Shown here in pieces: positions 25,877 through 42,137 of a stretch of 64,000 nucleotides of DNA. A program made the position numbers and the translations under genes. The notes under the pieces are model-generated. The model saw only the letters and a program-made list of their open reading frames with translations, searched no databases and was not told the DNA's origin. The DNA comes from an uncultured Acidobacteriota bacterium (GTDB lineage Bacteria > Acidobacteriota > Thermoanaerobaculia > UBA5066), in the NCBI GenBank assembly GCA_963779415.1, contig CAVZYA010000001.1, positions 288,001 to 352,000 of the forward strand, written 5' to 3'. Numbering within the stretch: the first letter of the stretch is position 1; the number at the start of each line of letters is the position of its first letter.

Positions 25877-26060
25877 CCCGCGCCTCCGGCGGAAATACGC
25901 TCCTCGCCGGCGGGAGCCTCGGGGAATCCTTCGTCCCCTTCCGCGAAACCTTCTTCAGGATGCGGCATCTGAGAAGTTGTCGCAAGTTGACGCCGGGACC
26001 GGATGGTTCGGGCCGGCCGAAAGAAAGAGACAGGTCAGACCTGTCAAAGAAGGAGACGAA

Positions 26061-26436
26061 ATGAAGAAGAACCGCCCGCCAAACGCCTACCTCTCCGCCG
26101 CCGTCGCCGGCTTGATCGCAGGATCGGCCCTCGCGGCGAGCGCCGCGCCGACCCCGCAGGGGAGCCCCGAGCCGACGAAGACGCCTGCCGCGTCGCAGAC
26201 GGACAAGAACTCCTGCAGCGGGCCCAACGGCTGCAGCGGCAAGAAGACGTCCGACAAGAAGGCCGGGACGTCCGACGCCGACAAGCACGCCTGCAAGGGC
26301 CAGAACTCCTGCAAGGGGAAGGGGGGCTGCAAGACCGACAAGAACGCCTGCAAGGGCCAGAACGCCTGCAAGGGACAGGGGCGGCTGCGCCACCGACGGG
26401 AAGGCTCACCCCAAGCCGACCGAGAAGGCTGGCTGA
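26061..26436 (+). CDS. BufA2-type Cys-rich periplasmic bufferin (RiPP) precursor; +1 frameshift at 26378-26381
   Basis: Signal peptide then DKNSCSGPNGC, DKHACKGQNSCKGKGGC, DKNACKGQNACKGQG. Removing one G from GGGG restores GCATDGKAHPKPTEKAG*. Confidence 0.8.
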
Positions 26437-26506
26437 CGCTCCGAGACCGGACGGCCCCGGCCGCGCTGCGGCCGGGGCTGCCTCATCTGAAGGGAGGAAG
26501 TCGCCC

Positions 26507-27364
26507 ATGGCCAACCGCTGGAACCTGCCGACGCTCGGCTACGGAATCGGCCTCCGGACGGTTCACTTCGGGGAGATCCTCGAGCGCCGTCCCCGTATCG
26601 ACTTCTTCGAGGCGATCACCGAGAACTTTCTCGACACCGGGGGGCGGCCGCTCCACGTTCTCGACCGCGTTGCCGAGCGGACACCTGTCGTCCTGCACGG
26701 TGTATCGCTGAACATCGGAAGCAGCGACCCGCTCGACCTCGACTACCTCCGGAAGGTCAAGGAGCTGGCGCGGCGCACCGACGCGCCCTGGGTGACCGAC
26801 CATCTCTGCTGGACGGGTGTGGCCGGACGAAACGTCCACGACCTCCTCCCCCTGCCGATGAACGAAGAGACCCTCGCGCACGTTGCGAAGCGGGTCCGGA
26901 CCGTCCAGGACGTTCTGGAGCGCCCGATTCACCTGGAGAACCCCTCGACGTACCTGGAGTTCGCGACGTCGACGATGGGCGAGGCCGAGTTTCTCCGTCG
27001 CCTCACCGAGCAGGCCGACTGCGGCCTTCTTCTCGACGTGAACAACGTCTTCGTCTCCGCGTTCAACCACGGGTGGGACGCCGAGGCATACATCGACGCC
27101 ATTCCCGCCGACCGGATCGTCCAGATTCACCTCGCGGGTCATACCGACAAGGGGACTCATCTCCTCGACACCCATTCCGACCACGTGCGTGACGAGGTCT
27201 GGGCCCTCTATGGACGGCTCATCGCGCGTACGGGGCCGGTCACGACGCTCGTCGAGTGGGACGAGGAGATTCCCGCTCTCGACGTCGTTCACACCGAAGC
27301 TCTGAAGGCTCGAGACGTGGCCTCGCGGGCGCTCCGGCCGGTGGACGTAAGGGAGGCGGCATGA
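26507..27364 (+). CDS. DUF692 multinuclear non-heme iron oxidase (MNIO; BufB/MbnB family)
   Basis: GIGLR..H, EAITENF, HGVSLNIG, TDHLCW, LENPS.Y, LLDVNN, QIHLAGH, DTH, EWD. Confidence 0.95.
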   Translation: MANRWNLPTLGYGIGLRTVHFGEILERRPRIDFFEAITENFLDTGGRPLHVLDRVAERTPVVLHGVSLNIGSSDPLDLDYLRKVKELARRTDAPWVTDHLCWTGVAGRNVHDLLPLPMNEETLAHVAKRVRTVQDVLERPIHLENPSTYLEFATSTMGEAEFLRRLTEQADCGLLLDVNNVFVSAFNHGWDAEAYIDAIPADRIVQIHLAGHTDKGTHLLDTHSDHVRDEVWALYGRLIARTGPVTTLVEWDEEIPALDVVHTEALKARDVASRALRPVDVREAA

Positions 27365-28203
27365 GCGATCCCGTCCTCTCCCTCGCGGCGACCCAAACCT
27401 GGATGCAGGCCGTTCTGGTCCATCCAGAGGGGGCGGAGCACGGGCTATCGGCGCCCGAGGCGCGACGGCATCTCGCGCCCGAAGACACCCCGCGGGTCGT
27501 TCGGGAGCAGGGGGAGCTGACCGGTGTCGAAAGGCTCCAGATCTACGCGGGGATGTATCCCCTCCGGATGGTCGAGGCGCTTCGGAGCGATTACCCGGCC
27601 CTGGCCCATCTTCTCGGCACGCGGAGGTTCGAGCGGCTGGTACGCGACTTCGTGGCGGCCCACCCCTCGCGGAGCTTTACGCTGGCGCGCCTCGGCGACC
27701 GCTTTCCGGAGTTCGTGGCGGGATGGGGGAGCCCTCGCCGCCGGGGGCTTCTCGCCGACGTCGCCCGGCTGGAGCTGGCCGCGACGCAGGTCATCGACGC
27801 TGGGGTGACGGCGCCCATCGATCCCTCGGCGCTTTCGGCCGTACCGGCCGGCGAGTGGGCACGAACGAAGCTCGTCCCGGCGGCGGCATTCCGCATCGTC
27901 AAGGTCCGCCCGGGCGCGGTCGACGTTCTGGACGCCGTCCTCGAGGAGACGCCCATCCCTCGAAATGCCGGCCGACGGCGGGTCTGGGTCGCCTACTACC
28001 GGCAGGACTATGTCGTCCGGCGGCGGACGCTGGGGCCCCTCGAAGGAGACCTCCTCGACTCCCTGATCAACGGCGAGACGCTCCGAGCCGCTCTCGAGAC
28101 CGCCGCAAAGACGTCCGCACGCCGAAACCTCGCAGGGGAGAAGCTCTCCCGATGGTTCGCCGAATGGACTCGTCTCGGCTTCTTCGCCGGGATCAGGTCA
28201 TAG
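27361..28203 (+). CDS. DUF2063 (BufC/HvfC) MNIO partner protein
   Basis: ERLQIYAGMY..R..EAL..DYP.L..LLG, HPS.S.TL..LG..FP.F, LADVARLE; ATGA-coupled to DUF692. Confidence 0.88.
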   Translation: MSDPVLSLAATQTWMQAVLVHPEGAEHGLSAPEARRHLAPEDTPRVVREQGELTGVERLQIYAGMYPLRMVEALRSDYPALAHLLGTRRFERLVRDFVAAHPSRSFTLARLGDRFPEFVAGWGSPRRRGLLADVARLELAATQVIDAGVTAPIDPSALSAVPAGEWARTKLVPAAAFRIVKVRPGAVDVLDAVLEETPIPRNAGRRRVWVAYYRQDYVVRRRTLGPLEGDLLDSLINGETLRAALETAAKTSARRNLAGEKLSRWFAEWTRLGFFAGIRS

Positions 28204-28704
28204 CCCGGCGCGGCGCGCGGCGAGATTTTCCCGGTTCCGCTCCTCGGGAAGATCGCCCGGCGTGAATCGGCGGACCAGGATCCGGTCGAGAGAGAGCGTC
28301 CCCGCGCCGAAGGCGGCGAGATAGCCGAGGACGAGAAGGTAGAGGAACTCGACCGTCCCGTAGAGATCGGAGGCGCTCGAGATGTCACCCCTTTTCGCCG
28401 TCAGGAGGGCGACGACCATCGACACCGAGAGAGGCACGGAGACGACCCGCGTGAAGAGCCCCGCGAGGAGGAAGAGGCCGCCCACGAACTCCAGGCTCGC
28501 CACGAACGGAGCCTGAAGCTGCGGTGCGGGGATGCCGAGGCTGCCGAAGTAGTCGATCACCCGCGGGAGGTTGTGGAGCTTTCCCCAGCCGGTCTGGACG
28601 AAGACCGATCCGAGCGCGAGGCGGGCAAGGGTCTGGGGAAGCCACGAGAGGGCTCCGGCCACCCTGAGAACGAACGCGCGGGCGGTTTGAGCGGTCCGGA
28701 TCAT
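28198..28704 (-). CDS. DoxX family membrane protein (BufD-like)
   Basis: RLALG.VF..TGWGKL, EFVGGL.LL.GLFTR, GAG.LSLD; SD AGGAGG. Confidence 0.9.
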   Translation of the reverse strand: MIRTAQTARAFVLRVAGALSWLPQTLARLALGSVFVQTGWGKLHNLPRVIDYFGSLGIPAPQLQAPFVASLEFVGGLFLLAGLFTRVVSVPLSVSMVVALLTAKRGDISSASDLYGTVEFLYLLVLGYLAAFGAGTLSLDRILVRRFTPGDLPEERNRENLAARRAGL

Positions 28705-28952
28705 CGGTCCTCCTGCACTTCTCTGATGCCGTCGAGCGCCCGGAAGTTCCGCAGAAGCCGGGGAATCCGTCACCGCGGCAAACAGACGGGCCGGATCCAA
28801 TTGAGCTTGCGTTTCATTCGCGTCTTTCGCTATCCTTCTTCCATTCGGGGCGGTTTCGTGAGCGAGCATCGGAAGAGGTGAGAAGTCATGGCAGAGCGGC
28901 GCCGTGCGGGCCGCCCTCCGTTTTCAGCCAACCGACCAGGTGTGGAGGAGTC

Positions 28953-30131
28953 ATGAAAACCGTTCGAAGCATCTCGATCGCCGCTTCTCTTCTCGTTATG
29001 GCCTTTCCGCTTCTGGGCCAACCGGGGCCGGGGCAGGGGACGGCGCACGCCGCTGTCCTGGTTCCGGACTCAACTCTTGAGCACGCCGAGGACGTGGGCG
29101 TGCGTGCTCACACGAACCATCTGATCAAGGTCGGCCCGCAGTTCGTCGGGACGTCCCCCGCCGGAGAGACGCCGGCCTCGATCCGGACCGTCTACAACCT
29201 CCCCTCGACCGGCGGCACCAACGTGATCGCGATCGTGGATGCCTTCGATTACGCGACGGCCGAGAACGACCTCGGCGTCTTCTCGAATACGTTCGGACTT
29301 CCTCCGTGCACGAAAGCGAATGGCTGTTTTCAGGTCGTCTATGCCTCGGGAAGGAAGCCGCGGAGCAACTGCGGCTGGGCGCAGGAAGCGGCGCTGGACA
29401 TCGAGTGGGCCCACGCCATGGCGCCGTACGCCAAAATCATCCTCGTGGAAGCCGCCAGCAGCAGTTTCGCCGATCTCTTCAAGGCCGTGGACGTCGCCCG
29501 GAAACTGACGGGAGTCACACAGGTCTCCATGAGCTGGGGCGGGAGCGAGTTCTCGAGCGAGGCCGGCGACGATTCCCACATGCTGCAGACGGGCGTCGTC
29601 TTCTTCGCCTCGAGCGGCGACACCGGCGGAGCGACGATCTATCCCGGGGTTTCGCCGAACGTGGTCTCGGCGGGGGGCACGACGATCCACCGCGACGCGA
29701 GCGGCAACTTCACCGGCGAGACGGGCTGGAGCGGAAGCGGCGGCGGCCCGAGCAAGTACGAGGCGAGGCCTTCGTATCAGGACGGCATCAAGGCCATCGT
29801 CGGGAGCGCGCGCGGCGTGCCGGACTTCTCTTTCGACGCCGATCCGAACAGCGGCGTCTCCGTCTACGACAGCACTCCGTGCCAGGGCCTCAGCGGATGG
29901 CTCGTCTTCGGCGGCACCAGCGTCTCTGCTCCCTCCCTCGCCGGCGTCGTCAACCTGGCCGGCGGCTTTCAGTCCAGCAGCGCGCTCGAGATGGGCCTGA
30001 TCTACGGCAATCTCGGCAACTCGACGGACTTTCGCGACATCACCTCCGGAACCGCCGGCAAGTTCAGCTGTGCCGTCGGCTGGGACTTCGTGACCGGCGT
30101 GGGGAGCGACCAGGGCCTGAGCGGCAAGTAG
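28953..30131 (+). CDS. S53 (sedolisin-like) peptidase, secreted
   Basis: EAALD (Glu-x3-Asp), SSGDTG, GGTSVSAP (Ser), GWDFVTG.G; signal peptide; SD GGAGGAG. Confidence 0.9.
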   Translation: MKTVRSISIAASLLVMAFPLLGQPGPGQGTAHAAVLVPDSTLEHAEDVGVRAHTNHLIKVGPQFVGTSPAGETPASIRTVYNLPSTGGTNVIAIVDAFDYATAENDLGVFSNTFGLPPCTKANGCFQVVYASGRKPRSNCGWAQEAALDIEWAHAMAPYAKIILVEAASSSFADLFKAVDVARKLTGVTQVSMSWGGSEFSSEAGDDSHMLQTGVVFFASSGDTGGATIYPGVSPNVVSAGGTTIHRDASGNFTGETGWSGSGGGPSKYEARPSYQDGIKAIVGSARGVPDFSFDADPNSGVSVYDSTPCQGLSGWLVFGGTSVSAPSLAGVVNLAGGFQSSSALEMGLIYGNLGNSTDFRDITSGTAGKFSCAVGWDFVTGVGSDQGLSGK

Positions 30132-30353
30132 GCTTCGGCTCTCCCCTTCACCGGCCACGGGATCTGCGGGCGGCCATACCCCGGTCTCCCGAGTCGAGGG
30201 CTCGGTCCGAAGAGCGCGGCAGGTTCGCGACCTTGCCGAAGGCTCACGCACGACGAGCCTTGCGGGCGCCATGGAAACTCCATATCCTCCGCCGCGCAAG
30301 TCCGGCCGGTGAACCGTGATTCCCTCATTCCGAGACCTTCCAGGGGGTAGTCC

Positions 30354-31727
30354 ATGACCGAAACGATCGCGTTGTCCGACGGGGCCATCAAGACGCTCGG
30401 CAAGAAGTCGACGATCACCGTCATCGCCGGGAAAGCCCGGGCGCTCGCGGCGAAGAACCCCGATTTCGTCCGGGCCGACACGGGGGAAGTCTGTGCGCCG
30501 GGGCTTTTTCCTCCCGGCTACCGGGAGAGCCTCGAGAAGACGGCCCGCGAGGTGCTGCGCGAAGGACGGATCGGATACTCCGCCCCTGACGGCGACCCGA
30601 AGCTGAAGAAGCTCGTCTTCAAGTATTCCATCGAGGACGACCTGCGCGCCCTGATCCTCGAGCGGCTCCGCGACGAGGCAAAGGCGAGCGGCGCGGACGT
30701 CGCGAAGTACACGGAGGAGAGCCTTCCGAAGTTCGTCTCGATCACCCCGGGGGGCGCAGGGGCGCTCGGCGCGGCCATCGCGGTCTTTTTGACGGAGAAG
30801 AAGAGGTTCTTCGTCGTGAACCAGAGGACATGGCAGAACCACAACCTGATCGTCGACATGCACGGCGGGATGCTCTTCCCCGTTCCGCTCGTCGACGAGC
30901 AGGGGCGCGTCGCCGATCCCGACACGATCCTGAAGCTCTGTCATCCCGTCAGGGAACGGATCGCGGCCTTCCTCTTCACCGAAATCAACAATCCGGACGG
31001 CTCCGTCGTGACGGAAGCCTCCGAGCAGAAGAAGCTCGAGGCTATCGTCCGGGGGCTGGACGTCCCGCTGATCCTCGACGCCGCGTACCACGGGATGGTC
31101 TTCGACGGAAAGAAGACGCAGCCCTTCTCGCCCGACGTTCTCAATAAAACCGTCATCTGCGGCAGCTACTCCAAGTCGCTTCAGATCCCCGGCGAACGGC
31201 TCGGTTACCTCGCCAGCTACGACACACGCGTCGTGAGATACGTCTACTTCTACAACCGCTCCCACAGCGGCTGCCCCTCCGTGACGCCCCAGAACGCGCT
31301 CATGGGGCACCTCTCCCTCAACGAGTCGGCCCCCGGAGTGGTGACGACTTACAACAAGGCTCTCCTTTCGGAGCTGGAGACGCGGAGGAACATCCTCGTC
31401 GAGACGGTGAGGAAAGAGCTCGGCTGGAAGATGAACGCCCCGGGGGGCGCCATCTACGCCGTCATCCCGGTCCCGGGCGACGTCGTGAAGGCGTTCGGCG
31501 ACATCGACGCCTTCTCGATCGGCCTCGTCGAGAGGGGGGGCGTCAGCGCCATTTCCGGGAGCGACTTCGAGTTCCGCCTCCGCGGGCCGGTGGGGCACGA
31601 GGAGATCTACACGCCCCCGCCGACGGATCCGTCCATGCACTACCTCCGGTTCTGCTTCGGTTTCACCCCGACCGACCGCGTCGCGCTGGCCGTCCGGAAC
31701 ATCAAGGCTTTCGTCGCGAGCCGATAG
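30354..31727 (+). CDS. PLP-dependent class I/II aminotransferase (divergent)
   Basis: GYSAPDG, ITPGG, NNPDG, ILDAAY, SYSK(PLP)SLQIPGERLGY, YLRFCF. Confidence 0.88.
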   Translation: MTETIALSDGAIKTLGKKSTITVIAGKARALAAKNPDFVRADTGEVCAPGLFPPGYRESLEKTAREVLREGRIGYSAPDGDPKLKKLVFKYSIEDDLRALILERLRDEAKASGADVAKYTEESLPKFVSITPGGAGALGAAIAVFLTEKKRFFVVNQRTWQNHNLIVDMHGGMLFPVPLVDEQGRVADPDTILKLCHPVRERIAAFLFTEINNPDGSVVTEASEQKKLEAIVRGLDVPLILDAAYHGMVFDGKKTQPFSPDVLNKTVICGSYSKSLQIPGERLGYLASYDTRVVRYVYFYNRSHSGCPSVTPQNALMGHLSLNESAPGVVTTYNKALLSELETRRNILVETVRKELGWKMNAPGGAIYAVIPVPGDVVKAFGDIDAFSIGLVERGGVSAISGSDFEFRLRGPVGHEEIYTPPPTDPSMHYLRFCFGFTPTDRVALAVRNIKAFVASR

Positions 31728-31744
31728 CGAGAGGAGCGGAAGTC

Positions 31745-32854
31745 ATGGAGGTCGACGGCGGAAGGCTCGTCCGGTGGCTCCAGGAGCTGATCCGGATCCC
31801 GAGTGTCACGGGAGACGAAGGGGCGGCCGCGCGTTACGTCGAGGAGGAGCTTCGGCAGCTCGGCTATCGCCCGAGCGTCGAGGCGAACAACGTCTACTTC
31901 GAGACGGGCGAAGGCCCCACCTCCCTTCTCCTCAACTCGCACCTCGACACCGTCGAGCTGGGGAAGGGATGGAAGCGCGACCCGTTCGCCGGACTCCTCG
32001 AGAACGGTAAGGTCTACGGCCGCGGAGCGAGCGACGACAAGGGGAACGTCGCGGCGATGCTGGAGATCGCCCGCCTCGCGAAGGGGCGCAACCTCGGCAA
32101 GCGGCTCCTTTTCACCTTCACCACGGGAGAGGAATTCGGCACGAAACTGGAGGAGAAGGGGAGCTTTCTCCTTTCGAAGCACCTCCGGGCCGACAAGGCA
32201 CTCGTCCTCGAGCCGCAGTTCGACGTGAAGGAGCGGCGCCTCAACATCATCCACGGCTGTCGCGGGATCGAGAACATCAAGGTGCAGATCATGGGGAAGG
32301 GGGCCCACACCGGTTATCCGGAGCGCGGCGTCAACGCCGTCTCGCGCGCCGTCCGGATCCTTTCGAAGATCGAACAGATGGAGTTCCACTCGGTCACGGT
32401 CCCGGGGCAGAAAGTCACGACCGTCTGCATGCCGATCCGGATCGAAGGGGGCGCCGACATGTTCCTCGTCCCGGCCACCTGCGAGATCCTCATCCACGCC
32501 CGGACCGCTCCCGGGGACGGGAGGCTCGTCGTGGACGTCGAGCGTATCTGCCGGGAGGTCTGCGGCTCCGACTTCACGATGACGACCCCTTACAGCGCTC
32601 CCGGGTACGTCGAGAGCCACGAGGACCCCCTCATCGACCTGATCCGGAAAGAATCGTCCGCAGCGGGCTGGGTCACCGAGACCCGGTTCGCCGGCGGCCG
32701 GATCGACGCCGCGATCTTCAGGAACGTCGCCGGGATCCCGTCCTTCTGCACGGGGGTCGGCGACCGCGACCAGATGCACCTGATCGACGAGTTCATCACG
32801 GTAGAAGACTTCGTCACCGGATCCGAGATCCTTAAGAAGATCGTCTTCGCCTGA
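31745..32854 (+). CDS. M20 metallopeptidase (ArgE/DapE family deacylase)
   Basis: NSHLDTV, GRGASDDKG, GEE, LEP, C-terminal MH..DE. Confidence 0.92.
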   Translation: MEVDGGRLVRWLQELIRIPSVTGDEGAAARYVEEELRQLGYRPSVEANNVYFETGEGPTSLLLNSHLDTVELGKGWKRDPFAGLLENGKVYGRGASDDKGNVAAMLEIARLAKGRNLGKRLLFTFTTGEEFGTKLEEKGSFLLSKHLRADKALVLEPQFDVKERRLNIIHGCRGIENIKVQIMGKGAHTGYPERGVNAVSRAVRILSKIEQMEFHSVTVPGQKVTTVCMPIRIEGGADMFLVPATCEILIHARTAPGDGRLVVDVERICREVCGSDFTMTTPYSAPGYVESHEDPLIDLIRKESSAAGWVTETRFAGGRIDAAIFRNVAGIPSFCTGVGDRDQMHLIDEFITVEDFVTGSEILKKIVFA

Positions 32855-32877
32855 GACGATCCGAAGCCGAGGTACGC

Positions 32878-34302
32878 ATGTTCCATGACGTCGACGAAGC
32901 GCTCCGTTACATCAGGGACCGGAAGGTCGCCATGGTGGATCTGAAGACGGCCGACCTCCTCGGCCGCTGGCGGCACATGGTCTACAAGACGGGCCACGAC
33001 GACGAGAAAATCTTCACGAAGGGGACCGGGACGAGTCTCAGCTCCTATCCGGGGTTCAAGACGATCGAGGCCGGCGACATGACGATCAAGCCGGATCCGA
33101 CGACCGGCTTCATGGATCCCTTCGCCGAAGTACCGACCCTCTGCTTCATCTGCGATATCTACAACAACGACGGGTCGCCGTTCGAGCTGGACCCGCGCTA
33201 CGTGGCGCGGAAGGCGGAGAAGTACCTCGGGAAGGTGATGCCCGGAGGCTCCACGCTCTGGGGGCCGGAGCTGGAGTTCTACCTCTTCGACGAGGTCCGG
33301 TACCAGAGCGACATCCAGCAGGCGTTCTACCGCGTCGATTCCGCCGAGTCCTACTGGAACGCCGGAAAGGAAGGGAGCCAGGGCTACAACCTCCCCTTCA
33401 CGAAAGGGAGCCAGGCCGACCTCCCGCGCGACCGGTTCTGCAACCTCCGGTCGCGGATGGTTCAGTACCTCGAAGAGGCCGGCGTCCCGATCAAGTACCA
33501 CCACCACGAGTCGGGCTCGCCCGGCCAGATGGAGATCGAGACTTACTTCACGCCCCTTCTTCAGGCCGGGGACAACGTCTTCAAGATGAAATACATCATC
33601 AAGAACGCCGCCGTTCAGGCCGGGAAGACCGCGACGTTCATGCCGATGCCGCTCTATGCCGAGTCGACGAACGGCATGCACTACCACCAGTACGTCACCG
33701 ACGGGAAGAAGTCGCTCTTCTGGGACGCCAAGGGGTACGGCGGGATGAACAGAGCGGGGCTCTCGTACATCGCCGGCATCCTGTCGCACGTCCAGGCGGT
33801 CCTCTCGCTCACGAACGGCAGCACGAACTCCTACCGCCGCCTGGGGGGCTATCGCGCGGCGCCGAACTACGTCTTCTTCTCCGTCGGAAACCGGACGGCG
33901 GCCATCCGGATCCCGGCATACGCCATCAACGAAAGGGAAGCCCGGGTGGAGTTCCGGATGCCGGACGCCACCGGGAACCCCTATCTCTCCCTCGCCGCGA
34001 TGCTGATGGCGGGGCTGGACGGCGTCGAGAAGGGCCTCGACCCGACGAAGGAGGGCTTCGGCCCCTTCGAGGAGAACTTCAACCTGCAGGAGGTCGTCGA
34101 CAAGCACAAGCTGTCGCGCGCTCCCGACAGCCTTCAGGAAGCGCTCCTCGCCCTCGAGAAGGACCACGCCTTCCTGACGAAGGAGAACGTCTTCCCGGAG
34201 GCGCTCGTCAAGGGATGGATCAATGTGAAGGAGACGCTCGAGATCGCGCCTCTCCTCAAGCGACCCCATCCGTACGAGTACGACCTCTACTACGACCTGT
34301 GA
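32878..34302 (+). CDS. Glutamine synthetase type I-like protein (probable gamma-glutamyl-amine ligase)
   Basis: GPELEFY, HHHE..PGQ.EI, GMHYH, NRTAAIRIP, RVEFRMPD are retained, but FDGSS, KGGY and GYEAP are replaced by TSLSS, KGSQ and GYRAAP. Confidence 0.88.
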   Translation: MFHDVDEALRYIRDRKVAMVDLKTADLLGRWRHMVYKTGHDDEKIFTKGTGTSLSSYPGFKTIEAGDMTIKPDPTTGFMDPFAEVPTLCFICDIYNNDGSPFELDPRYVARKAEKYLGKVMPGGSTLWGPELEFYLFDEVRYQSDIQQAFYRVDSAESYWNAGKEGSQGYNLPFTKGSQADLPRDRFCNLRSRMVQYLEEAGVPIKYHHHESGSPGQMEIETYFTPLLQAGDNVFKMKYIIKNAAVQAGKTATFMPMPLYAESTNGMHYHQYVTDGKKSLFWDAKGYGGMNRAGLSYIAGILSHVQAVLSLTNGSTNSYRRLGGYRAAPNYVFFSVGNRTAAIRIPAYAINEREARVEFRMPDATGNPYLSLAAMLMAGLDGVEKGLDPTKEGFGPFEENFNLQEVVDKHKLSRAPDSLQEALLALEKDHAFLTKENVFPEALVKGWINVKETLEIAPLLKRPHPYEYDLYYDL

Positions 34303-34339
34303 GGCGCCAGGTCGGCCTCGATAAGTGTATGATCAGTGC

Positions 34340-34573
34340 ATGGCCGTCAAGACCATCACGATCGACGTTGAGGCCTACGAGATCCTGGCGCGCAGAAAGC
34401 GGCCCGGTCAGTCGTTCTCCGAGCTCGTCAAGATGGAGTTCGGACGAATCCGGACAGGCCGCGACCTCGCGGCGGCCCTGAACGGCATCCGCCTTTCAGA
34501 AGGGACGCTGGATGCCACGGACCGCCAGATCCGTCGGCGATCTCGGAGTCTCGCCAGAGCGCCGAAACGGTGA
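34340..34573 (+). CDS. vapB: VapB-type antitoxin (DUF217-like)
   Basis: MAVKTITIDVEAYEILARRKRPGQSFSELV; GTGA overlap with the PIN toxin. Confidence 0.85.
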   Translation: MAVKTITIDVEAYEILARRKRPGQSFSELVKMEFGRIRTGRDLAAALNGIRLSEGTLDATDRQIRRRSRSLARAPKR

Positions 34574-34974
34574 TCCACCTCGACACGTCCTTTCTCGTGG
34601 ACCTGATGAGGGAGGCCTCGCGCGGCCGCGTCGGGCCGGCAACGTCCCTCCTCCGGACGCTTCAGAACGAGGAACTGGCAATCAGCATCCACGTCGCGTG
34701 TGAACTCCGTGCGGGAGCCGAGCTTTCGAGCAACCCCGCGGAGGAGCACCTCAAGGTCGAGGCCCTCTGCCGGGGACTGGAGGTCGTCACCCCGGCCGAG
34801 ACGTTCCCGGGGATCTATGGGACTCTCCTCGCGCGTCTCGAACGGCGCGGGGAGAGGATCGCGACGATGGATCTCCTGATCGCCACGGCAGCGGTCGCTT
34901 CGGGAGCATCCCTCGTGACGCGCAATGCTCGGCACTTCGGGAGGATCTCCGAGCTTCGCCTGGCCGCTTACTGA
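34570..34974 (+). CDS. vapC: VapC PIN-domain toxin
   Basis: HLDTSFLVD, EL..G, MDLLIA..A, LVTRNARHF. Confidence 0.92.
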   Translation: MIHLDTSFLVDLMREASRGRVGPATSLLRTLQNEELAISIHVACELRAGAELSSNPAEEHLKVEALCRGLEVVTPAETFPGIYGTLLARLERRGERIATMDLLIATAAVASGASLVTRNARHFGRISELRLAAY

Positions 34975-34992
34975 CTCGTACGGGGGACATGC

Positions 34993-36024
34993 TCAGCGGA
35001 TGACGGCCGAAGGATCGATGGCGACGTTGAAGAGGGCGGGGTCGTACTTGTAGCTGTTCAGGGCATCGGCGGTCTGGGGCGAGACGGTCCGGAGGAGCTT
35101 TCCGAGCGAAGCCTGGACGTCGGCGCCGATCTTCACCTTCGAGACGACCTCGACGGTGACCGACGTCGCGTTGGCGCGCCTCGGTCCTCCTTCGCGTAGG
35201 ACGAGGCTGGCCATGAGCGGATTCGGGTCGATGACGGTGACGCCCGGATAGCCGAGCCCCGCGAAGGTCTTCTTCCAGAGGTCGAGAACGTAGCCGTAGT
35301 GCGTGCAGTTGAGGCTGACGACGAGCGGGCCGGGGTTCGAAGGGAGGCGCCGGATCGCCTCGGCGACGAACGCCCGGACGTACGTCGACGTCTCCTCGCT
35401 GTCGGCCCCGCGCTCGATCGACCCCGCGAGGCGGGGGCACGACTCGCCGACGATGTGGTCGGCCGGAATCCCTTTCTCGACGAGGAGCTTCGGATAGGCG
35501 CCCGATTCGATCGTCGTCTTCGTTCCGAAGATGACGGCGGTTCCCCCCGGATTCTCTTTCATCTTCTCGCCGATCAGGTCGGCGCCCATCCCGACGATCG
35601 GGACGACTTCCGTGCCGCCCGCTTTCGCGTGCTCCGTCTTGTCGTAGAGGACCGAGAGCGTGTTGCAGGCGATGAGGAGGATGTCGGGCCTGTAGCGGCT
35701 CTCCATGGCGTCGAGGGCCGCGTCGAAGACGCGCAGCTTGTCCTTCTCGAGCTTCATGTCGTTGTAGCCGATCGCGTCGTCGAGGAGAGCGTTCACGAAG
35801 ACGATCCGGGCCGACTTCGCGATCCCGCTCGCCGGCAGCTGCGCCGCGAGCTGGGCCACGACGGAGAGCCCGCCGAGCCCCGAGTCGGTCACGACGATGG
35901 TGACGTCGGGACGCTCGCGGACGGCCTCGGCGAAGGTGGCCGGCTTCTTCCCGGCGGTCTGGCATCCGGCAAGGACGAGTGCGGCTGCCGCAAGGAGTGA
36001 ACGGGACCTCGAAAGCCTTCTCAT
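34993..36024 (-). CDS. Asp/Glu racemase family lipoprotein
   Basis: DSGLGGLSV, IACNT, NCTHY (both catalytic Cys) preceded by lipobox LAGC. Confidence 0.85.
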   Translation of the reverse strand: MRRLSRSRSLLAAAALVLAGCQTAGKKPATFAEAVRERPDVTIVVTDSGLGGLSVVAQLAAQLPASGIAKSARIVFVNALLDDAIGYNDMKLEKDKLRVFDAALDAMESRYRPDILLIACNTLSVLYDKTEHAKAGGTEVVPIVGMGADLIGEKMKENPGGTAVIFGTKTTIESGAYPKLLVEKGIPADHIVGESCPRLAGSIERGADSEETSTYVRAFVAEAIRRLPSNPGPLVVSLNCTHYGYVLDLWKKTFAGLGYPGVTVIDPNPLMASLVLREGGPRRANATSVTVEVVSKVKIGADVQASLGKLLRTVSPQTADALNSYKYDPALFNVAIDPSAVIR

Positions 36025-36172: not shown

Positions 36173-37939
36173 ATGATCCGTTCGAGGAATCGCATGGGCG
36201 GAAGCCTCGTCGGCCTGCCGGCAGGCGTATCCCTCGCCGTTCTCGTCCTGGCCGCATGGCCGGTCACGGTCTCGGCGCACGCCACGAACTCGAAGCTCCC
36301 GGCAAGCGTCCGTTTCCTGATCGGCGCTGCCGCGCCGCCGAGGTGGGTCGTGTCGGGCCTCGCCTATGCCGCAGGCGTACTGCCGGGATCGTTCTACGTC
36401 TCGGACGTCGTGATCGAGAACCCGAGCACGACGCAGCCGATGAGCCTTTCGCTCGCGCTCGCCGACGGGACGGCCCCCGCCTCCATGGCATGGAAGCCGA
36501 TCCAGCTCTCGCCGATGGAGAGCCGCAGCTTCTCGAACATCCTCCAGAGCTTCTTCGGAAAGGCCGCGGGAGGGCCGGCCACGACGCTCATCGTCAGGGG
36601 CGACTCCCTCCCGACGAACGCGACGCCGGTGATCTGGGCGTCGACGTACAACAACAACGGCGGCGACCCGACGAAGGGAACCTACGGGGTCGCGATTGCG
36701 GCCGTTCCCCTCTCGGCGGCCGTCTCGACCGCTTCGTCCAGGGCTCTCACGGAGATCCCGGGTCTGCGTGACGTTCCGGACTATTCCAGCCGGAGCTCGC
36801 TCGTCGCGTATCCGAACGTCTCCCCGGCCTACACGAACGTCGGGTTCGTGAACCCCGGCAGCGTCCCGGCGACTCTGAAAGTCGACTTCACCTCCTCCAG
36901 CCTCGCGACGATCTCCAAAGAGCTCGGCTCGGAGGTGACCCTGACGCTCAGCCCGAACGAGACGAGGCAGATCACGAAGGCGCTCACGAGACCCGTTCCG
37001 ACCGGAGCGGCGTGGAACGTCATCAGCCAACCGGAGGCAAACTACCTGATGACGGTGAGCGTGGCGGCCGGCGGTATGGTCGTTCCCTACGCTTCGGTCA
37101 AGGACATCGGCTCGTCCGACTCGGTCTTCATGACGAGCGACGGTGCGGTCTCGACGACCTACCGGGTCCCGGCCGTCGTCCGTGCGAACGGCCAGCACGG
37201 GACGGTCTTCCGGAGCCGTCTCGTCCTCTTCAACCCTTCGGGAGCGACGCGCGCCGTGCAGCTCTCCTTCTCATACCTGAAGTGCGTGCGCGGTACCTCC
37301 ACATGCGATCCGCGGAAGGTCGTCGCGGGAAACCTCACGCTCCTCTCCGGGCAGGCGGTCATCTTCGAGGACTTCGTGGGGGAGTGGCTGACCCAAAACG
37401 GCCTCGCCGTCGACGATGGAAGCGACTACACGACGTCGTTCATCGACATCTCGGGCGCCGACCCGAACACCGACCCTCTCCTCGTCCGGGCCGAGACTTA
37501 CAACGCCACGCCGACCGGAAACTTCGGGACGCAGATTCCGGGGTTCGTCGCGTCGATCCACGGGGCCTCGGCGGCGGCCGGAGGACCCGGCAGCCGTCTT
37601 CTGATCCCGCGCGCGGTTCCGAACGGCGGGACCAGCGGCTTCCGGACGAACGTGGCCCTCGTCCTCCTTGCCGGGGCGACCGGTACCGCGAAGGTGCGGC
37701 TCTACCCGAGCGCTGGCGGACTTCCTGCTCTGCCGGACGTCTCTCTCACCGTCACAGCTGCAGAGCCCTTTCTCCAGCGGTCGCTCGAAAACCTCTTTCC
37801 GGCGATCACGTCGTCAGGAGCTGGAAAGAAGTATTCCATCGAGATCGTGGTCACGAGCGGGACGATCGGCGGGTACACGTCGATCAACGACAACGTCACC
37901 GGCGACTCGTCGGTGATCGTGGCCCGCCCGCAGCAATAG
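36173..37939 (+). CDS. Secreted protein with tandem Thermoanaerobaculia-type beta-domains
   Basis: Signal peptide; two repeated modules (YVSDVVIENPS..YTNVGFVN..YASVKD.GSSD and FRSRLVLFNPS..FRTNVALV..YTSINDNVTGD). Confidence 0.7.
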   Translation: MIRSRNRMGGSLVGLPAGVSLAVLVLAAWPVTVSAHATNSKLPASVRFLIGAAAPPRWVVSGLAYAAGVLPGSFYVSDVVIENPSTTQPMSLSLALADGTAPASMAWKPIQLSPMESRSFSNILQSFFGKAAGGPATTLIVRGDSLPTNATPVIWASTYNNNGGDPTKGTYGVAIAAVPLSAAVSTASSRALTEIPGLRDVPDYSSRSSLVAYPNVSPAYTNVGFVNPGSVPATLKVDFTSSSLATISKELGSEVTLTLSPNETRQITKALTRPVPTGAAWNVISQPEANYLMTVSVAAGGMVVPYASVKDIGSSDSVFMTSDGAVSTTYRVPAVVRANGQHGTVFRSRLVLFNPSGATRAVQLSFSYLKCVRGTSTCDPRKVVAGNLTLLSGQAVIFEDFVGEWLTQNGLAVDDGSDYTTSFIDISGADPNTDPLLVRAETYNATPTGNFGTQIPGFVASIHGASAAAGGPGSRLLIPRAVPNGGTSGFRTNVALVLLAGATGTAKVRLYPSAGGLPALPDVSLTVTAAEPFLQRSLENLFPAITSSGAGKKYSIEIVVTSGTIGGYTSINDNVTGDSSVIVARPQQ

Positions 37940-37979: not shown

Positions 37980-38490
37980 TCAGCGCCCCGGTGCCCGCGC
38001 CTCGGCCCGGGAAAGACGAGACTCCAGCTCCGACAGCCTTGCTCTCACGTCTTCGCTCTCTCGCACCCGGGTTTTGGGGGCATTGATCTCGGCTCGCTGT
38101 GCCTCGATGTCCTGCGCCACGAACCCCATGTCGATCCGTCCGTTGCCATCCCGAAGCCGGTACTCCACGGGCCGCAGCGCGAGGACGAAGTCGAGGCCGA
38201 GAAGGACGTCGCGCCGGTTCTGCGGCCAACGAACGCGTTGTAGGACGCCGTGTACTGCAGCGCCTCGAAGGCGAGGAGCGTGTAGTCCTTCTGTCCGAGC
38301 GTCATCCCGGAGTGGTCCTTGAGGGCGACGTGGACGGTGGCCGGACCGCCCACGATGTTGACCATCCCGAAGTGGTGGCGGAAGTTCTCGTTCGATCCCT
38401 GGGTGATCCCCTGAAGCTGGGAGGTCTCGCCGGGGCCGATGGCGAACGTGGCCGCCCTGCGCACGCGAGACGGCCCGCTTCCGAGGAGGA
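37980..38490 (-). pseudogene. Collapsed remnant of a secreted protein with peptidase S74 (tail-fibre chaperone) domain
   Basis: One frame gives FAIGPGETSQLQGI..ENFRHHFGMVN..VALKD..G.TLG.K.Y. After a frame change: LGLDFVLALRPVEY..MGFVAQDIE plus a coiled-coil end. No start or signal peptide. Confidence 0.6.
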
Positions 38491-38540
38491 AAAGGATCTC
38501 CGCGGGTAAGATGCCGCGCGCGAAGGATGAGACCGGCACC

Positions 38541-41500
38541 ATGAAAAACAGCTCTGCCGGCACTACCGCCCCCCGACGAACCTTCCTCGACCCCCATGGT
38601 CTCTCGGCGCGCGCTCTTTCCACGCCCGAGCCGCTCGTCCGCGCCTTCGCGCGGCGGGTCCAGCAGGAAGGGGCGCTGGACCTGACCCAGGGGGACTACA
38701 AGAACGCCGACTTCGCGCCGCACCCGGAAGTCGTCCGCGCGGCCCAGCGGATCACCCGGAACACCGTCCACAGCTACGGGCCGGCCGTCGGCCGGATGGA
38801 CGTGCGGGGGGAGATCGCCGACTTCTTCAACCGCGACGGGCTTCTCGACTACCCCTCCTCGAACGTCCGGTTCCTCCCGGACGAGGTTCTCTTCACCCCC
38901 GGGACGCGCTCGGGCCTCGCGATGGCGCTCGAGGTGCTCGGGGCGGACGGATCGGGCGTGGTGGTCCCGCGCCCGAGCTGGGAATACGACTGGTTCGTCG
39001 AGCGCGCCGGGAAGCGCCTCGTCGAGCTGCCGACGAGCTCTCCCGAGTTCCTTCCCGATCCGGACGAGCTGGAGCGGCTCCTCGAAAAGGGCGACATCTC
39101 GTCCGTCATCATCAACAACCCGCACAATCCGACGGGACGGGTCTACCCGCGGTCGCTCGTCGAGGCGCTCGTCCGGGTCGCGGTGAAGCACCGCGTCTTC
39201 GTCCTCTACGACTCCGTCTACCAGCGCCTCGACTATGTCGGCTCGTTCGTGAATCCCGCCTTTGCCGACCCCGAGTGGCGCGACTGGGTCGTCACCCTCT
39301 CGGGGCTTTCCAAGATGGACATGTTCGGCGCCTCGACGGGGGCCCGGGCATGCTGGCTCGTCCTCTCGGACCAGATCCGTTCGGGCGGGGTGCGCGCGAG
39401 GGAGATTCTCGCGAACCTCTCGGCATGGCTCGTTGCGACCCCCTCGACACTGGCGCAGGACTGGGCGCTCGCGGCGCTCCAGAGCCCCCTGGCGGCGCTC
39501 CGCCGGCCGTCTCCATACATGCGGGAACGGCGCGACTTCATGGCCGAAGGGGCGGACGCGCTCGCGCCTCTCGGGGTTACGCGGACCGACTTCGGCGGGA
39601 CGTTCTACGCCCCTCTCGCCTTCCCGGGCCTCGTCGGCGAGCCGTTCGACCGGCTTCGCAACGGCATCCACGAGCGGGCCGTCGTCCGGACGTCGGTCGA
39701 GGCCTTCGAGTTCCTTCTCGCGGGGGCCGTGGGAGGGATCCCGTTCGCTGCCTTCGCCGGCTCCGACCCGGACCGGTACGGGACGTGGCAGCGCCTTTCG
39801 TACGGCTCGAAGGACGTGAAGGAGCTGGCCGTCTTCATGGAGCGCGTCCGCGCCCGGATCGAGCGGCAGGGGCGCCTCGGGTCGAGCGCGAAGGCCGAAA
39901 CCGCCGTCCGGACCGTGGAGGACGAGGTCTGGGAGAGCACCTGCACCGACGCGGGATACCCGGCTCTCGACGGGCTCGACCCGATCGCGTTTGCCGAGGC
40001 GCACCGAAAATTCCGGGAGGGCTCCGCGCCGGAGACGCTCCGGTCGCTTCGTCTCACGGGGACGAAGCATCCGGATTCCACGGCGCATCGGGCCGAGCAG
40101 CTCGCGCGGGCGATCCGCTCGGTCGAAGCCGGAACGCCGAACCGCGCCGAGCGGGCGCTGACTCATCTCGAATGGAATCCGCTCGTCGAGGCCCGGCAGG
40201 AATACGAGGAGTCGATCGCCGACCTCCTCGGCCCCTGCACCGAAGTGCTCCTCGACTACGAGGGGCGCCAGATCAGCCCGGAGTGGCTGGACGTCCCGGA
40301 GAAGGTCGTCCTCGCCCTTCTCCGCCACGGAATCCTCCCGGGGGAGGACCGGCATCTCCTCTTCCGAGTCCCGAATCCCTGGCTCGAGCAGGACGAGGAG
40401 AAGGTCTCGAAGATCCTCGCCGCGGTCGCGCGGACGAACTTTCTCTTCCTCCTCGCCTGCGAGCGGCTCGGGATCGAGCCCGCGCGCAACGCCATCAACG
40501 AGCTGACCGTTCCCCAGGTGAACTCCGGGGCGGAGCTGGGGGCGGTGGTGAAGATCGGGACGCTCTACCTGCAGGCGGCCGAGGGGCTCTTTTCGGGCGC
40601 CCCGGAGCGCGTCGACGACTTCCTCCGGAGCCGCATTCCCGAATCGCGCCGTGCGGCCCTCACGGCGAAGGTCTCCCGCGTCCGGCTCGTCCCGCTCGTC
40701 GAGAACGTCGGCGCGCTCGCGCACCTTCCCGAGTTCCTCGAGATCTTCTACGAGACTCTGGAGCGGAACCGGGGGGCGGAAGGGCTCCCGACGCCGGCCT
40801 CGTTCCGGACGCGATTCGACGGCTCCGACGCCGTCGTCCGGATCTTCGTCGCGATGTCCGACACGGCCGAGCAGAGCGGGAAGATCGCCACCGACGCGGC
40901 CTTCACTCTCGCGGTGGCCGGGCGGGAGGAGGCGGAGAGACGTCTCGCCGGACACGCCCGGAAGGCGGGGGAGCCGCCGCCGCGCGTGACGTACCTGATC
41001 GGAGCGGGGGGCGCGGGCTTCCGCGGCGGCTTCGATCCGTCGCACGAAGGAGTCATCGCCCAGTTCGCCCGGGCCGACGGCGTCACGATGCAGGGGATCC
41101 GGGCCGACGCTCCCGAGAAAGCCGCTCGGCTCGCCGAGGCCTTCCGCCGCGTGGCGGAGGCCGGAAGCCCGGTGCCGCCGGTCTCCGCCGGGGACCGGGA
41201 GTCGCTCCTCAGGCTCCTCGAAACGGGAGTGAAGGCCCACACGGAGACGCTCCTCCGGATCGCACCGCTCATCGCCCCCTTCAGCGGCCTCGTGCCGCAG
41301 ACGCGCGTCCGGATCCGGGCGACCGGCTCGGTCAACTACGGCCGGTCGATCCCGACCTATCCGGAGGAATGGGGGGGCGGGAAAGACCTCCCCGACAACC
41401 GGGATCTCCGCGACGCGTGGCCGGAGGGGGTGACTCTGCCCCGTGCCATCAACTACAACCTCGGCTGCACGACGCTGGGCCTCCCCGCCGTGACGAGCGA

Positions 41501-42137
41501 CCTTCTGGCGCTCGACAAACGGGCCGCCGTCCTTTTCGGGCGGCAGGTCCCGGGGTACCGGGAGATCCTCGCGAGCGAGCTGCCTTACTTCGTCCGCGAG
41601 TCGGTCGCGCTCGTCTTCGGACGAAAGCTCGCGGAGGCGACGGCGCGGCGGTGCCTCCGGGCGACGGCGGCGCTCTGGATCGACGCGCGCGTCCGCGAGG
41701 AGATCGTCGCGCCGACCTGCCTCTTTTCGATGCTCTACCTCCGGTACGTCGCCGAGGAGTCGGAGAGCTGGGACGAGACGAAGGAGCACGAGAGCCGGAC
41801 GACCCGCGAGGAGGAGCTTCTGCGCGAGACGGCGAGCGGCGCTTTCGGCGCTCTCTCCGCGGAGCGCCCCGGTGACCGGTGGACGCTCCTCCAGTCGCTG
41901 ATCGACGTGGAGGAGGCCTCGCGCCTCCTTCTCGCGCGGGAGCTGACGATCGAGGAGAAGCGGGAGTTCGTCGATCTCCGGATCGAAGGGTGGCTCCGGA
42001 CGCTCCCCGAGAGCCTCTCGCGGGATCTGCGGCGCGACTGGTCCCCGCTTCGGGAGCTTCCGAAGGCCGACCTGACGCTGCGCACCATCGAGCAGATGAT
42101 CGAGCTCGAGAAGCTCCGCGGGAGCCGTGGCGCATGA
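38541..42137 (+). CDS. Fusion: class I (aspartate-like) aminotransferase + archaeal-type phosphoenolpyruvate carboxylase (PpcA-like)
   Basis: N-half: NNPHNPTG, YDSVY, GLSK..TGAR, RLSY. C-half: TKHPD, DYEG, RVPNP, VPLVE, MSD, GFRGG, TMQ, YGRS, LPRAI in PpcA order. Start 38541 supported by an upstream TAAGAT and a purine-rich SD. Confidence 0.82.
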   Translation: MKNSSAGTTAPRRTFLDPHGLSARALSTPEPLVRAFARRVQQEGALDLTQGDYKNADFAPHPEVVRAAQRITRNTVHSYGPAVGRMDVRGEIADFFNRDGLLDYPSSNVRFLPDEVLFTPGTRSGLAMALEVLGADGSGVVVPRPSWEYDWFVERAGKRLVELPTSSPEFLPDPDELERLLEKGDISSVIINNPHNPTGRVYPRSLVEALVRVAVKHRVFVLYDSVYQRLDYVGSFVNPAFADPEWRDWVVTLSGLSKMDMFGASTGARACWLVLSDQIRSGGVRAREILANLSAWLVATPSTLAQDWALAALQSPLAALRRPSPYMRERRDFMAEGADALAPLGVTRTDFGGTFYAPLAFPGLVGEPFDRLRNGIHERAVVRTSVEAFEFLLAGAVGGIPFAAFAGSDPDRYGTWQRLSYGSKDVKELAVFMERVRARIERQGRLGSSAKAETAVRTVEDEVWESTCTDAGYPALDGLDPIAFAEAHRKFREGSAPETLRSLRLTGTKHPDSTAHRAEQLARAIRSVEAGTPNRAERALTHLEWNPLVEARQEYEESIADLLGPCTEVLLDYEGRQISPEWLDVPEKVVLALLRHGILPGEDRHLLFRVPNPWLEQDEEKVSKILAAVARTNFLFLLACERLGIEPARNAINELTVPQVNSGAELGAVVKIGTLYLQAAEGLFSGAPERVDDFLRSRIPESRRAALTAKVSRVRLVPLVENVGALAHLPEFLEIFYETLERNRGAEGLPTPASFRTRFDGSDAVVRIFVAMSDTAEQSGKIATDAAFTLAVAGREEAERRLAGHARKAGEPPPRVTYLIGAGGAGFRGGFDPSHEGVIAQFARADGVTMQGIRADAPEKAARLAEAFRRVAEAGSPVPPVSAGDRESLLRLLETGVKAHTETLLRIAPLIAPFSGLVPQTRVRIRATGSVNYGRSIPTYPEEWGGGKDLPDNRDLRDAWPEGVTLPRAINYNLGCTTLGLPAVTSDLLALDKRAAVLFGRQVPGYREILASELPYFVRESVALVFGRKLAEATARRCLRATAALWIDARVREEIVAPTCLFSMLYLRYVAEESESWDETKEHESRTTREEELLRETASGAFGALSAERPGDRWTLLQSLIDVEEASRLLLARELTIEEKREFVDLRIEGWLRTLPESLSRDLRRDWSPLRELPKADLTLRTIEQMIELEKLRGSRGA

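Follow-up and report, generated by a model that had tools for sequence, protein, structure and literature searches.

In the 64,000-nucleotide stretch analysed here (positions 288,001 to 352,000 of the forward strand of contig CAVZYA010000001.1, assembly GCA_963779415.1, from an uncultured Acidobacteriota bacterium), hereafter the window, three + strand genes lie in a row and encode an aminotransferase-fold enzyme, an M20 metallo-hydrolase and a predicted ligase derived from type I glutamine synthetase (GSI), dependent on adenosine triphosphate (ATP) and with a remodelled ammonium site. This ligase is very probably not a glutamine synthetase (GS). Its probable activity is the ligation of glutamate to an organic amine rather than glutamine synthesis, because the ammonium and flap residues have been lost while the phosphoryl-transfer machinery has been kept, and the most likely reading of the cluster is that an ATP-dependent glutamate-amine ligase acts with the aminotransferase and the M20 enzyme on one metabolite. 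To the full model, in which the amine ligase would serve a route of protection, transamination and deprotection, we give a probability of roughly 0.45.

The gene for the aminotransferase-fold enzyme, which is of the class I/II type dependent on pyridoxal phosphate (PLP), is the first of the operon (30354..31727, + strand, 457 amino acids; PF00155) and is followed by that of the M20 enzyme, a member of the ArgE/DapE/LysK deacylase family (31745..32854, + strand, 369 amino acids; PF01546 and PF07687), and by the ligase gene (32878..34302, + strand, 474 amino acids; PF03951 and PF00120). The common orientation of this trio and its intergenic gaps of 17 and 23 nucleotides, reported in an initial annotation of the window, agreed with the coordinates of the open reading frames (ORFs). 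The guanine plus cytosine (GC) content at third codon positions (0.89-0.91) was on par with that of the surrounding host genes.

Both the N-terminal beta-grasp domain (Gln-synt_N, PF03951, 4e-17) and the catalytic domain (Gln-synt_C, PF00120, 2e-92) were present in the ligase. Its score with the type I GlnA model TIGR00653 was 425.0 bits, under the curated cut-off of 429.15, while it reached only 192.1 bits with the gamma-glutamylputrescine synthetase model NF045547 (cut-off 650) and 159 bits with the type III-like model, indicating that the protein is a full-length GSI derivative placed, by these model scores, outside the known amine-ligase branch; the GSI scaffold had also been recognised in the initial annotation. 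Over residues 6-473 the ligase was collinear (HMMER) with the solved beta-like GSI chains 3NG0 of Synechocystis (2e-111, the best match) and 4XYC of M. tuberculosis (2e-101), and the motifs PELEF, HHHE, GQME, GMHYH, NSYRR, NRTAAIRIP and VEFRMPD, which serve metal, ATP and glutamate binding, were kept in the alignments to both chains, together with the equivalents of Glu131, Arg321 and Arg359. In these respects the ligase resembles canonical GSI, from which it differs by the absence of equivalents of Asp50, Tyr179, Glu327 and the adenylylation Tyr.

The substitutions were read from the HMMER alignments to 3NG0 and 4XYC, and a MAFFT alignment was also used. TSLSS (33031..33045, + strand, residue 52) stood in place of FDGSS in the Asp50 loop, with Asp replaced by Ser. 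In the Tyr179 loop, KGSQ (33403..33414, + strand, residue 176) took the place of GGY(H/F), Tyr becoming Ser and His/Phe becoming Gln, and in the Glu flap PG(Y/F)EAP was replaced by GYRAAP (33847..33864, + strand, residue 324), where the acid was lost and an adjacent Arg was gained. The flap Glu corresponded to Ala in the alignment to 3NG0 and in the MAFFT alignment, or to Arg in the alignment to 4XYC, in which a gap was opened; the acid was gone both ways, and no insertion was strictly required. EENFNL (34069..34086, + strand, residue 398) was found where adenylylated GSI has its target Tyr, the Tyr of 4XYC being aligned with Asn402. The four altered motifs, that at the adenylylation site included, had been listed by the initial annotation, which also noted that the metal, ATP and Glu motifs are kept, and each altered motif was found as described. 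The enteric numbers used here for Asp50, Tyr179 and Glu327 are motif correspondences that we assume to hold, the reference chains being 3NG0 and 4XYC and not the Salmonella enzyme.

The altered motifs were invariant in 23/23 full-length close homologues (query included), and in only 15 of the 177 columns that were at least 90% conserved among the 51 nearest canonical GSI did the ligase clade show fixed differences, the three named ammonium-site positions being among these 15. Such a pattern argues against chance as the origin of the substitutions. The accessible text of PMC10799026 assigns to the Asp50' loop the binding and deprotonation of ammonium, and to the Glu flap both the shielding of the site and the deprotonation of the intermediate; for GlnA2 and GlnA3, which are gamma-glutamylpolyamine synthetases, the portions available of PMC8998196 report substitutions at Ser53, Tyr179, Asn264 and Glu327, and in both sources the loss of the ammonium-binding residue and of the flap Glu marks gamma-glutamyl-amine ligases.

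The possibility that the ligase is still a glutamine synthetase, as a second isoenzyme with unusual regulation, was considered in view of its TIGR00653 score, barely below the cut-off, and of the retention of all phosphoryl-transfer residues. It is highly improbable, however, since both the flap Glu and the residue for binding and deprotonating ammonium have been lost, a loss fixed across the clade, and since strict linkage of the gene to those of two unrelated enzymes would serve no purpose in ammonium assimilation. A true GS was also encoded in every genome checked. The genome of the window (G000, 92% complete) carries on another contig a canonical GS that is 34% identical to the trio ligase and scored 471 bits with Gln-synt_C, against 311 for the ligase, and in 4/4 further genomes (G401-G404) a higher-scoring canonical GS was found beside the GS-like copy. 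The trio ligase is thus not the only GS-type protein of its genome; had it been the only one, the initial annotation would have counted this against an amine-ligase role.

The closest functional parallels are PuuA, GlnA2 and GlnA3 (GSI-gamma), in which the ATP, metal and glutamate sites are likewise intact and the ammonium pocket is substituted, and which ligate glutamate to organic amines, according to the available parts of PMC8998196 and PMC10799026. The trio ligase differs from them in branching inside canonical full-length GSI, in its low NF045547 score and in having the N-terminal beta-grasp domain, which the accessible text of PMC10799026 says is lacking in GSI-gamma. The partners are also different: PuuA-type enzymes work with an oxidase, a dehydrogenase and a PuuD-type hydrolase, the trio ligase with an M20 enzyme and an aminotransferase of class I. 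Taken with the phylogeny below, the sequence comparisons indicate that the ammonium site was lost a second time within full-length GSI, separately from its loss in GSI-gamma, and that a new fixed set of partners was acquired.

In order to place the ligase, its 120 best database relatives were sorted by motif; two short fragments were excluded and 118 were full-length. The trio ligase's own motifs were present in 23 (query included; 77-88% identity to the ligase), whereas 41 carried G(T/I)SLSP, GQxDxP and RRF....AAP (47-54% identity), 51 were canonical (IDASS or FDGSS with PG(Y/F)EAP) and three lay outside the motif patterns used. A maximum-likelihood tree of 60 chosen rows (IQ-TREE short search, LG+G4), rooted on the GSI-alpha of G000 itself and built of sequences other than characterised PuuA or GlnA3, placed all 37 rows of the SLS/AAP type together, as a single clade (SH-aLRT 99) within canonical GSI, which indicates that the ammonium site was lost once, at the base of this wider clade. 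The trio-linked ligases formed one long-stemmed subclade within it (support 100, stem length 0.51) and represent a later specialisation. In the one wider-clade genome context viewed (L016), the gene stood alone, with no aminotransferase or M20 gene within 10 kilobases. A metagenome scan with the wider-clade alignment, which uses generic patterns, gave 67/80 loci with PG(Y/F)EAP and 0/80 with SLS or AAP. No description of the trio or of the SLS/AAP clade was found in a literature search of papers available without subscription.

Scanning a genome collection with the ligase gave 13 loci encoding a 77-89% identical protein. The M20 gene was directly upstream of the ligase gene in 13/13 of them and the aminotransferase gene upstream of M20 in 12/13, the contig of the thirteenth (L011) beginning inside M20, so that the conserved gene order which the initial annotation had proposed to look for was present in every informative locus. 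Across these loci the ligase was the most conserved protein (77-89% identity, against 62-86% for the aminotransferase and 59-88% for the M20 enzyme). The record titles named Thermoanaerobaculia, Acidobacteriota, Aminicenantes, 'Eubacteriales' and Acidithiobacillales, and the GC content of five measured loci ranged from 43% to 68%. The flanking genes were unrelated between loci, and 7/9 low-GC loci (L006, L008, L010 and L012-L015) shared promoter-like boxes about 100 nucleotides upstream of the aminotransferase gene, matching a consensus with a -35 TTGAC(T/A)... and a TG-extended -10 TCTG(G/T)TA(T/A)A(A/T)G. Both observations indicate that the trio is a transcription unit of its own, as judged from sequence. 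No counterpart of the low-GC consensus was found upstream of the high-GC copy in the window. In a search for fused forms, one unrelated-looking fusion with an aldehyde:ferredoxin oxidoreductase (44% identity) was found. Five of the loci (L008, L009, L010, L012 and L015) were labelled 'uncultured Eubacteriales'; between the L012 genome and the Aminicenantes genome of L006, identity was 74.5% for the canonical GS and 72% for DapF, and the label of these loci is on this account probably wrong.

The two upstream genes look like dedicated partners of the ligase, because identity among their relatives falls from at least 62% straight to 30-36%, and both families are isolated clades which occurred only beside this ligase clade. 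The aminotransferase matched PF00155 (Aminotran_1_2) over residues 130-407 (3e-28; 99.4 bits, cut-off 19.7), and its PLP/cofactor motifs SYSK (S273-K274), N212-x-P-x-G (NNPDG) and D242-x-x-Y245 were invariant in 26 family members. Its homologues were 62-92% identical and then dropped to 30% or less; the nearest solved structure was the aspartate aminotransferase of Thermus (54 bits), with class I DapC 2O0R as a weak match, an ESM Atlas search returned generic aminotransferase clusters only, and no NCBIfam equivalog cut-off was reached. We propose that the product catalyses transamination. The M20 protein matched PF01546 (Peptidase_M20, 2e-23) and PF07687 (M20_dimer, 2e-9), both above cut-off, and its motifs HLD, SDDKG, GEE, LEP and MHL..E (the C-terminal His), presumably the metal ligands and the general-base Glu, were conserved in 13 orthologues, beyond which the next relatives were unnamed and only 32-36% identical. 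The top named models were those of ArgE/DapE-family deacylases, all below cut-off: TIGR01910 (160.3 bits, cut-off 217.6), dapE (136.6, cut-off 304.2), ArgE (114, cut-off 297.7) and LysK, the [LysW]-lysine hydrolase (NF003367; 77.4, cut-off 363). The solved relatives (E 5e-18 to 1e-12) were DapE, carboxypeptidase G2, ArgE and LysK (5XOY, 1e-12).

In the mechanism that we propose, a neofunctionalised GSI would use ATP and two metals to phosphorylate the side-chain carboxylate of glutamate, or of a close analogue, to an acyl-phosphate, and the acyl group would then be passed to an organic amine rather than to ammonia, the aminotransferase and the M20 enzyme acting on the same small molecule as the ligase. 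The ligase would first cap the free amino group of an amino-oxo acid otherwise prone to form a cyclic imine; the class I aminotransferase would turn the alpha-keto into an alpha-amino group; and the M20 enzyme would cleave the gamma-glutamyl amide and regain glutamate, so that, overall, transamination would be driven by ATP and would lead to a diamino acid or a comparable compound. Class I aminotransferases usually act at the alpha-carbon, as does the class I DapC 2O0R, and this class points to an alpha-keto acid centre and so to an amino-oxo acid as the possible substrate. The Arg gained in the flap leads us to infer that the nucleophile carries an acidic group, and the same Arg together with the Gln/Asp pair gained in the Tyr179 loop suggests a charged substrate, possibly an amino acid. 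By analogy with known pathways, protection, transamination and deprotection is a plausible and the most economical wiring of the operon; that the steps follow this order, that the pathway runs in this direction and that the nucleophile is an organic amine are likewise what we infer.

To our knowledge, every known acyl-protected transamination route (DapD/DapC/DapE, ArgA-J/ArgD/ArgE and LysX/LysJ/LysK) ends with an M20 enzyme of the ArgE/DapE family. As in the DapD/DapC/DapE and ArgD/ArgE routes, the trio combines an aminotransferase with an ArgE/DapE-family M20 deacylase, acting there on an N-acylated intermediate, and DapE and ArgE are the best named matches of its M20 protein. These routes, in contrast, add the group with a coenzyme A-dependent acyltransferase, where an ATP-dependent GS-type ligase would do so here; moreover, the trio proteins stayed below all equivalog cut-offs of these routes and G000 has a dapD-like gene of its own. 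The likeness to LysX/LysJ/LysK lies in gamma-glutamyl amide protection, transamination and release by an M20 enzyme, and LysK models matched the trio M20 protein. LysK cuts a gamma-glutamyl-amine bond, and the suggestion of the initial annotation that an M20 enzyme acting on a gamma-glutamyl amide would be unusual was therefore overstated.

The trio differs from the LysW system in that the operon has no carrier protein, for which the 17- and 23-nucleotide gaps leave no room, and no ATP-grasp ligase, nor was any of the neighbours scanned in the window an ATP-grasp protein; their roles would fall to free glutamate and a GS-type ligase, and kinase and reductase steps are missing. A more specific, doubtful form of the model is a carrier-free counterpart of LysW in which the GSI protein would act as a protecting-group ligase that spends ATP and free glutamate on opening the ring of a cyclic imino acid and capping it (tetrahydrodipicolinate, piperideine-2-carboxylate and pyrroline-2-carboxylate are candidates), after which the aminotransferase and an M20 deglutamylase would turn the capped intermediate into a diamino acid. 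If true, this would be a fourth, independently evolved solution to protection, transamination and deprotection, and the first function assigned to the wider GSI-derived clade without an ammonium site.

The presence of a hydrolase in the operon of a ligase also bears on the idea that the gamma-glutamyl amide is itself the end product, serving as osmolyte, nitrogen store or signal. The aminotransferase would then make the amine, the ligase would join glutamate to it, and the M20 enzyme would unmask a precursor or recycle the product. In favour of this role, no other tailoring genes accompany the self-contained module, and conservation is highest in the ligase. We nevertheless consider it unlikely, because an ArgE/DapE-type hydrolase in a ligase operon would most simply remove the group which the ligase has added, and because no exporter was linked to the trio.

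The distribution of the module was examined in genome samples, and absence holds for the genomes searched. No match above 48% identity to the ligase was obtained in 400 other Acidobacteriota genomes (a tally that includes three flagged as unpublished, G049, G152 and G024), and 22 matches examined among the best-scoring ones were all canonical GS, none being of the wider-clade type. In a sample of 151 genomes from the class of G401, matches at E <= 1e-150 with the G401 protein were found only in G401 and G404, and in 81 genomes from the order of G402 the aminotransferase occurred only in G402. The trio proteins of G000 and G402 were 66%, 63% and 82% identical, whereas DapF and canonical GS of the same two genomes gave only tblastx pieces of about 35-58% identity, a contrast which suggests that the module spread laterally and was afterwards adjusted to the composition of its hosts. 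Its rarity and mobility make a role in core biosynthesis, as in an amino-acid pathway, unlikely.

This rare, patchy occurrence would also suit a nutrient-use or detoxification module, in which an imported di- or polyamine or diamino acid is glutamylated as by PuuA or GlnA3, the aminotransferase removes the other amino group and the M20 enzyme, acting on the oxidised compound, sets glutamate free. This is how the characterised GS-like enzymes whose ammonium site is altered operate, as far as the accessible text of PMC8998196 and PMC10799026 describes them. The known pathways, however, also need an aldehyde dehydrogenase, and none was conserved at the related loci; neither was a transporter linked. 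Furthermore, the amine aminotransferases that we are aware of belong to class III whereas that of the trio is of class I, and the deprotected amino-oxo product would cyclise and could be obtained by direct transamination without ATP. For these reasons such a catabolic role seems to us unlikely.

Several observations weigh against the protect-transaminate-deprotect model. The loop that binds the amino group of glutamate is altered in this clade only, with the canonical A-G pair (which we take to be enteric N264-G265) changed to S-T, and the equivalent of Lys257 is Met in the trio-linked clade; the two changes raise the possibility that the acid substrate differs from L-glutamate. The best NCBIfam match of the aminotransferase was the cyclodehydratase GntC (94 bits, cut-off 415), a model that also topped the list for an unrelated aminotransferase domain in the window, and the aminotransferase fold houses lyases and cyclases as well. 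Three enzymes could, moreover, be wired together in several ways, of which making a bond and then cutting it is a single example, and no transporter, regulator or riboswitch was conserved with the module across the related loci.

The altered amino-group loop and Lys257 position are what an alternative acid, such as D-glutamate, 2-oxoglutarate or alpha-aminoadipate, would explain, with the aminotransferase acting on the acyl part and not on the amine part of the product. A distant glutamate-racemase-like gene (34993..36024, - strand; PF01177, 4e-11; TIGR00067 48.5 bits, cut-off 146.65) is linked to the trio in the window, where it is inverted and follows a VapBC-like insertion, and in L004 and L005 a 70%-identical gene is located downstream of the ligase gene. 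Nevertheless, the equivalents of Glu131, Arg321 and Arg359 are retained, and the racemase-like gene was missing from L003 and from all 9 low-GC loci, so that we regard a different acid as decidedly unlikely and the racemase-like gene as a possible lineage-specific accessory outside the core. In the insertion, a small antitoxin-like ORF precedes a gene for a PIN-domain (VapC-like) protein (4e-12), and the pair occupies 34341-34974 (+ strand) between the ligase and the racemase-like gene.

A specific pathway for the protect-transaminate-deprotect model was also tried, in which the trio would replace DapD, DapC and DapE in the diaminopimelate route, and it was dropped because the patterns of the trio and of dapD/DapL were not complementary. 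A dapD-like gene was present in G000 (175 bits), where it adjoins dapA, dapB, ask, asd and lysA, and in G404 (172 bits), both scores being below the cut-off. No dapD or DapL match above cut-off was obtained in the trio-bearing genomes G402 and G403 or in the trio-less G401, dapF was present in all five genomes (G000 and G401-G404), and close kin of the trio-bearing genomes were without the trio in the samples searched. The lysA gene of G000 (L057 5889-7171, - strand; about 1041888-1043170 of C1, outside the window) was found as two ORFs in different frames, one of 250 amino acids that covers model positions 64-182 and one of 187 amino acids that covers positions 267-357, a split due to a frameshift or else to a fault in the assembly.

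Ligation of glutamate to amines by GS-like enzymes has so far been known from one branch, GSI-gamma, and the sizeable, uncharacterised SLS/AAP clade is labelled glutamine synthetase by annotation pipelines; such genes should not be counted as nitrogen-assimilation capacity in metagenome surveys. One sub-branch of this clade is locked to two dedicated partners and forms a compact three-enzyme system. If the protect-transaminate-deprotect model is true, diamino acids would be reached by a chemical route not described before, and the GS fold would have gained a further use; should the model be wrong, the operon would nonetheless point to a metabolite that uncultured sediment and subsurface Acidobacteriota handle.

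With respect to the surroundings of the trio in the window, a sigma-70 promoter and terminator scan of 29800-35100 gave nothing beyond the shuffled expectation, and no Rfam match was obtained at gathering thresholds in the window and four loci (0 matches). No RNA sequencing run containing the region was listed, and the best DNA run contained 0.22 of the sampled words. An upstream ORF of 417 amino acids (28878-30131) had no family match and was conserved in none of the related loci; it is not counted as a member of the operon. Further upstream, 26003-28869 encodes a peptide-modifying enzyme of the MbnB/TglH/ChrH family (DUF692, 1e-106) with its DUF2063 partner, and a DoxX gene lies on the opposite strand. 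The DUF692/DUF2063 cluster was missing from the related loci L004 and L005, in which a sigma-54 regulator is close to the trio.

Downstream, an ORF of 588 amino acids without family match (36173-37939, + strand) has a 76%-identical copy within an ORF of 1883 amino acids elsewhere in the same genome (C1:1679007-1684658). Another ORF encodes 1232 amino acids (38439-42137, + strand), and in its product a class I/II aminotransferase domain (residues 80-374, 6e-33) is fused to an archaeal-type phosphoenolpyruvate carboxylase domain (PF14010, residues 582-1065, 4e-33; TIGR02751 108.6, below the cut-off of 146). This fusion could be a channel from phosphoenolpyruvate through oxaloacetate to aspartate.

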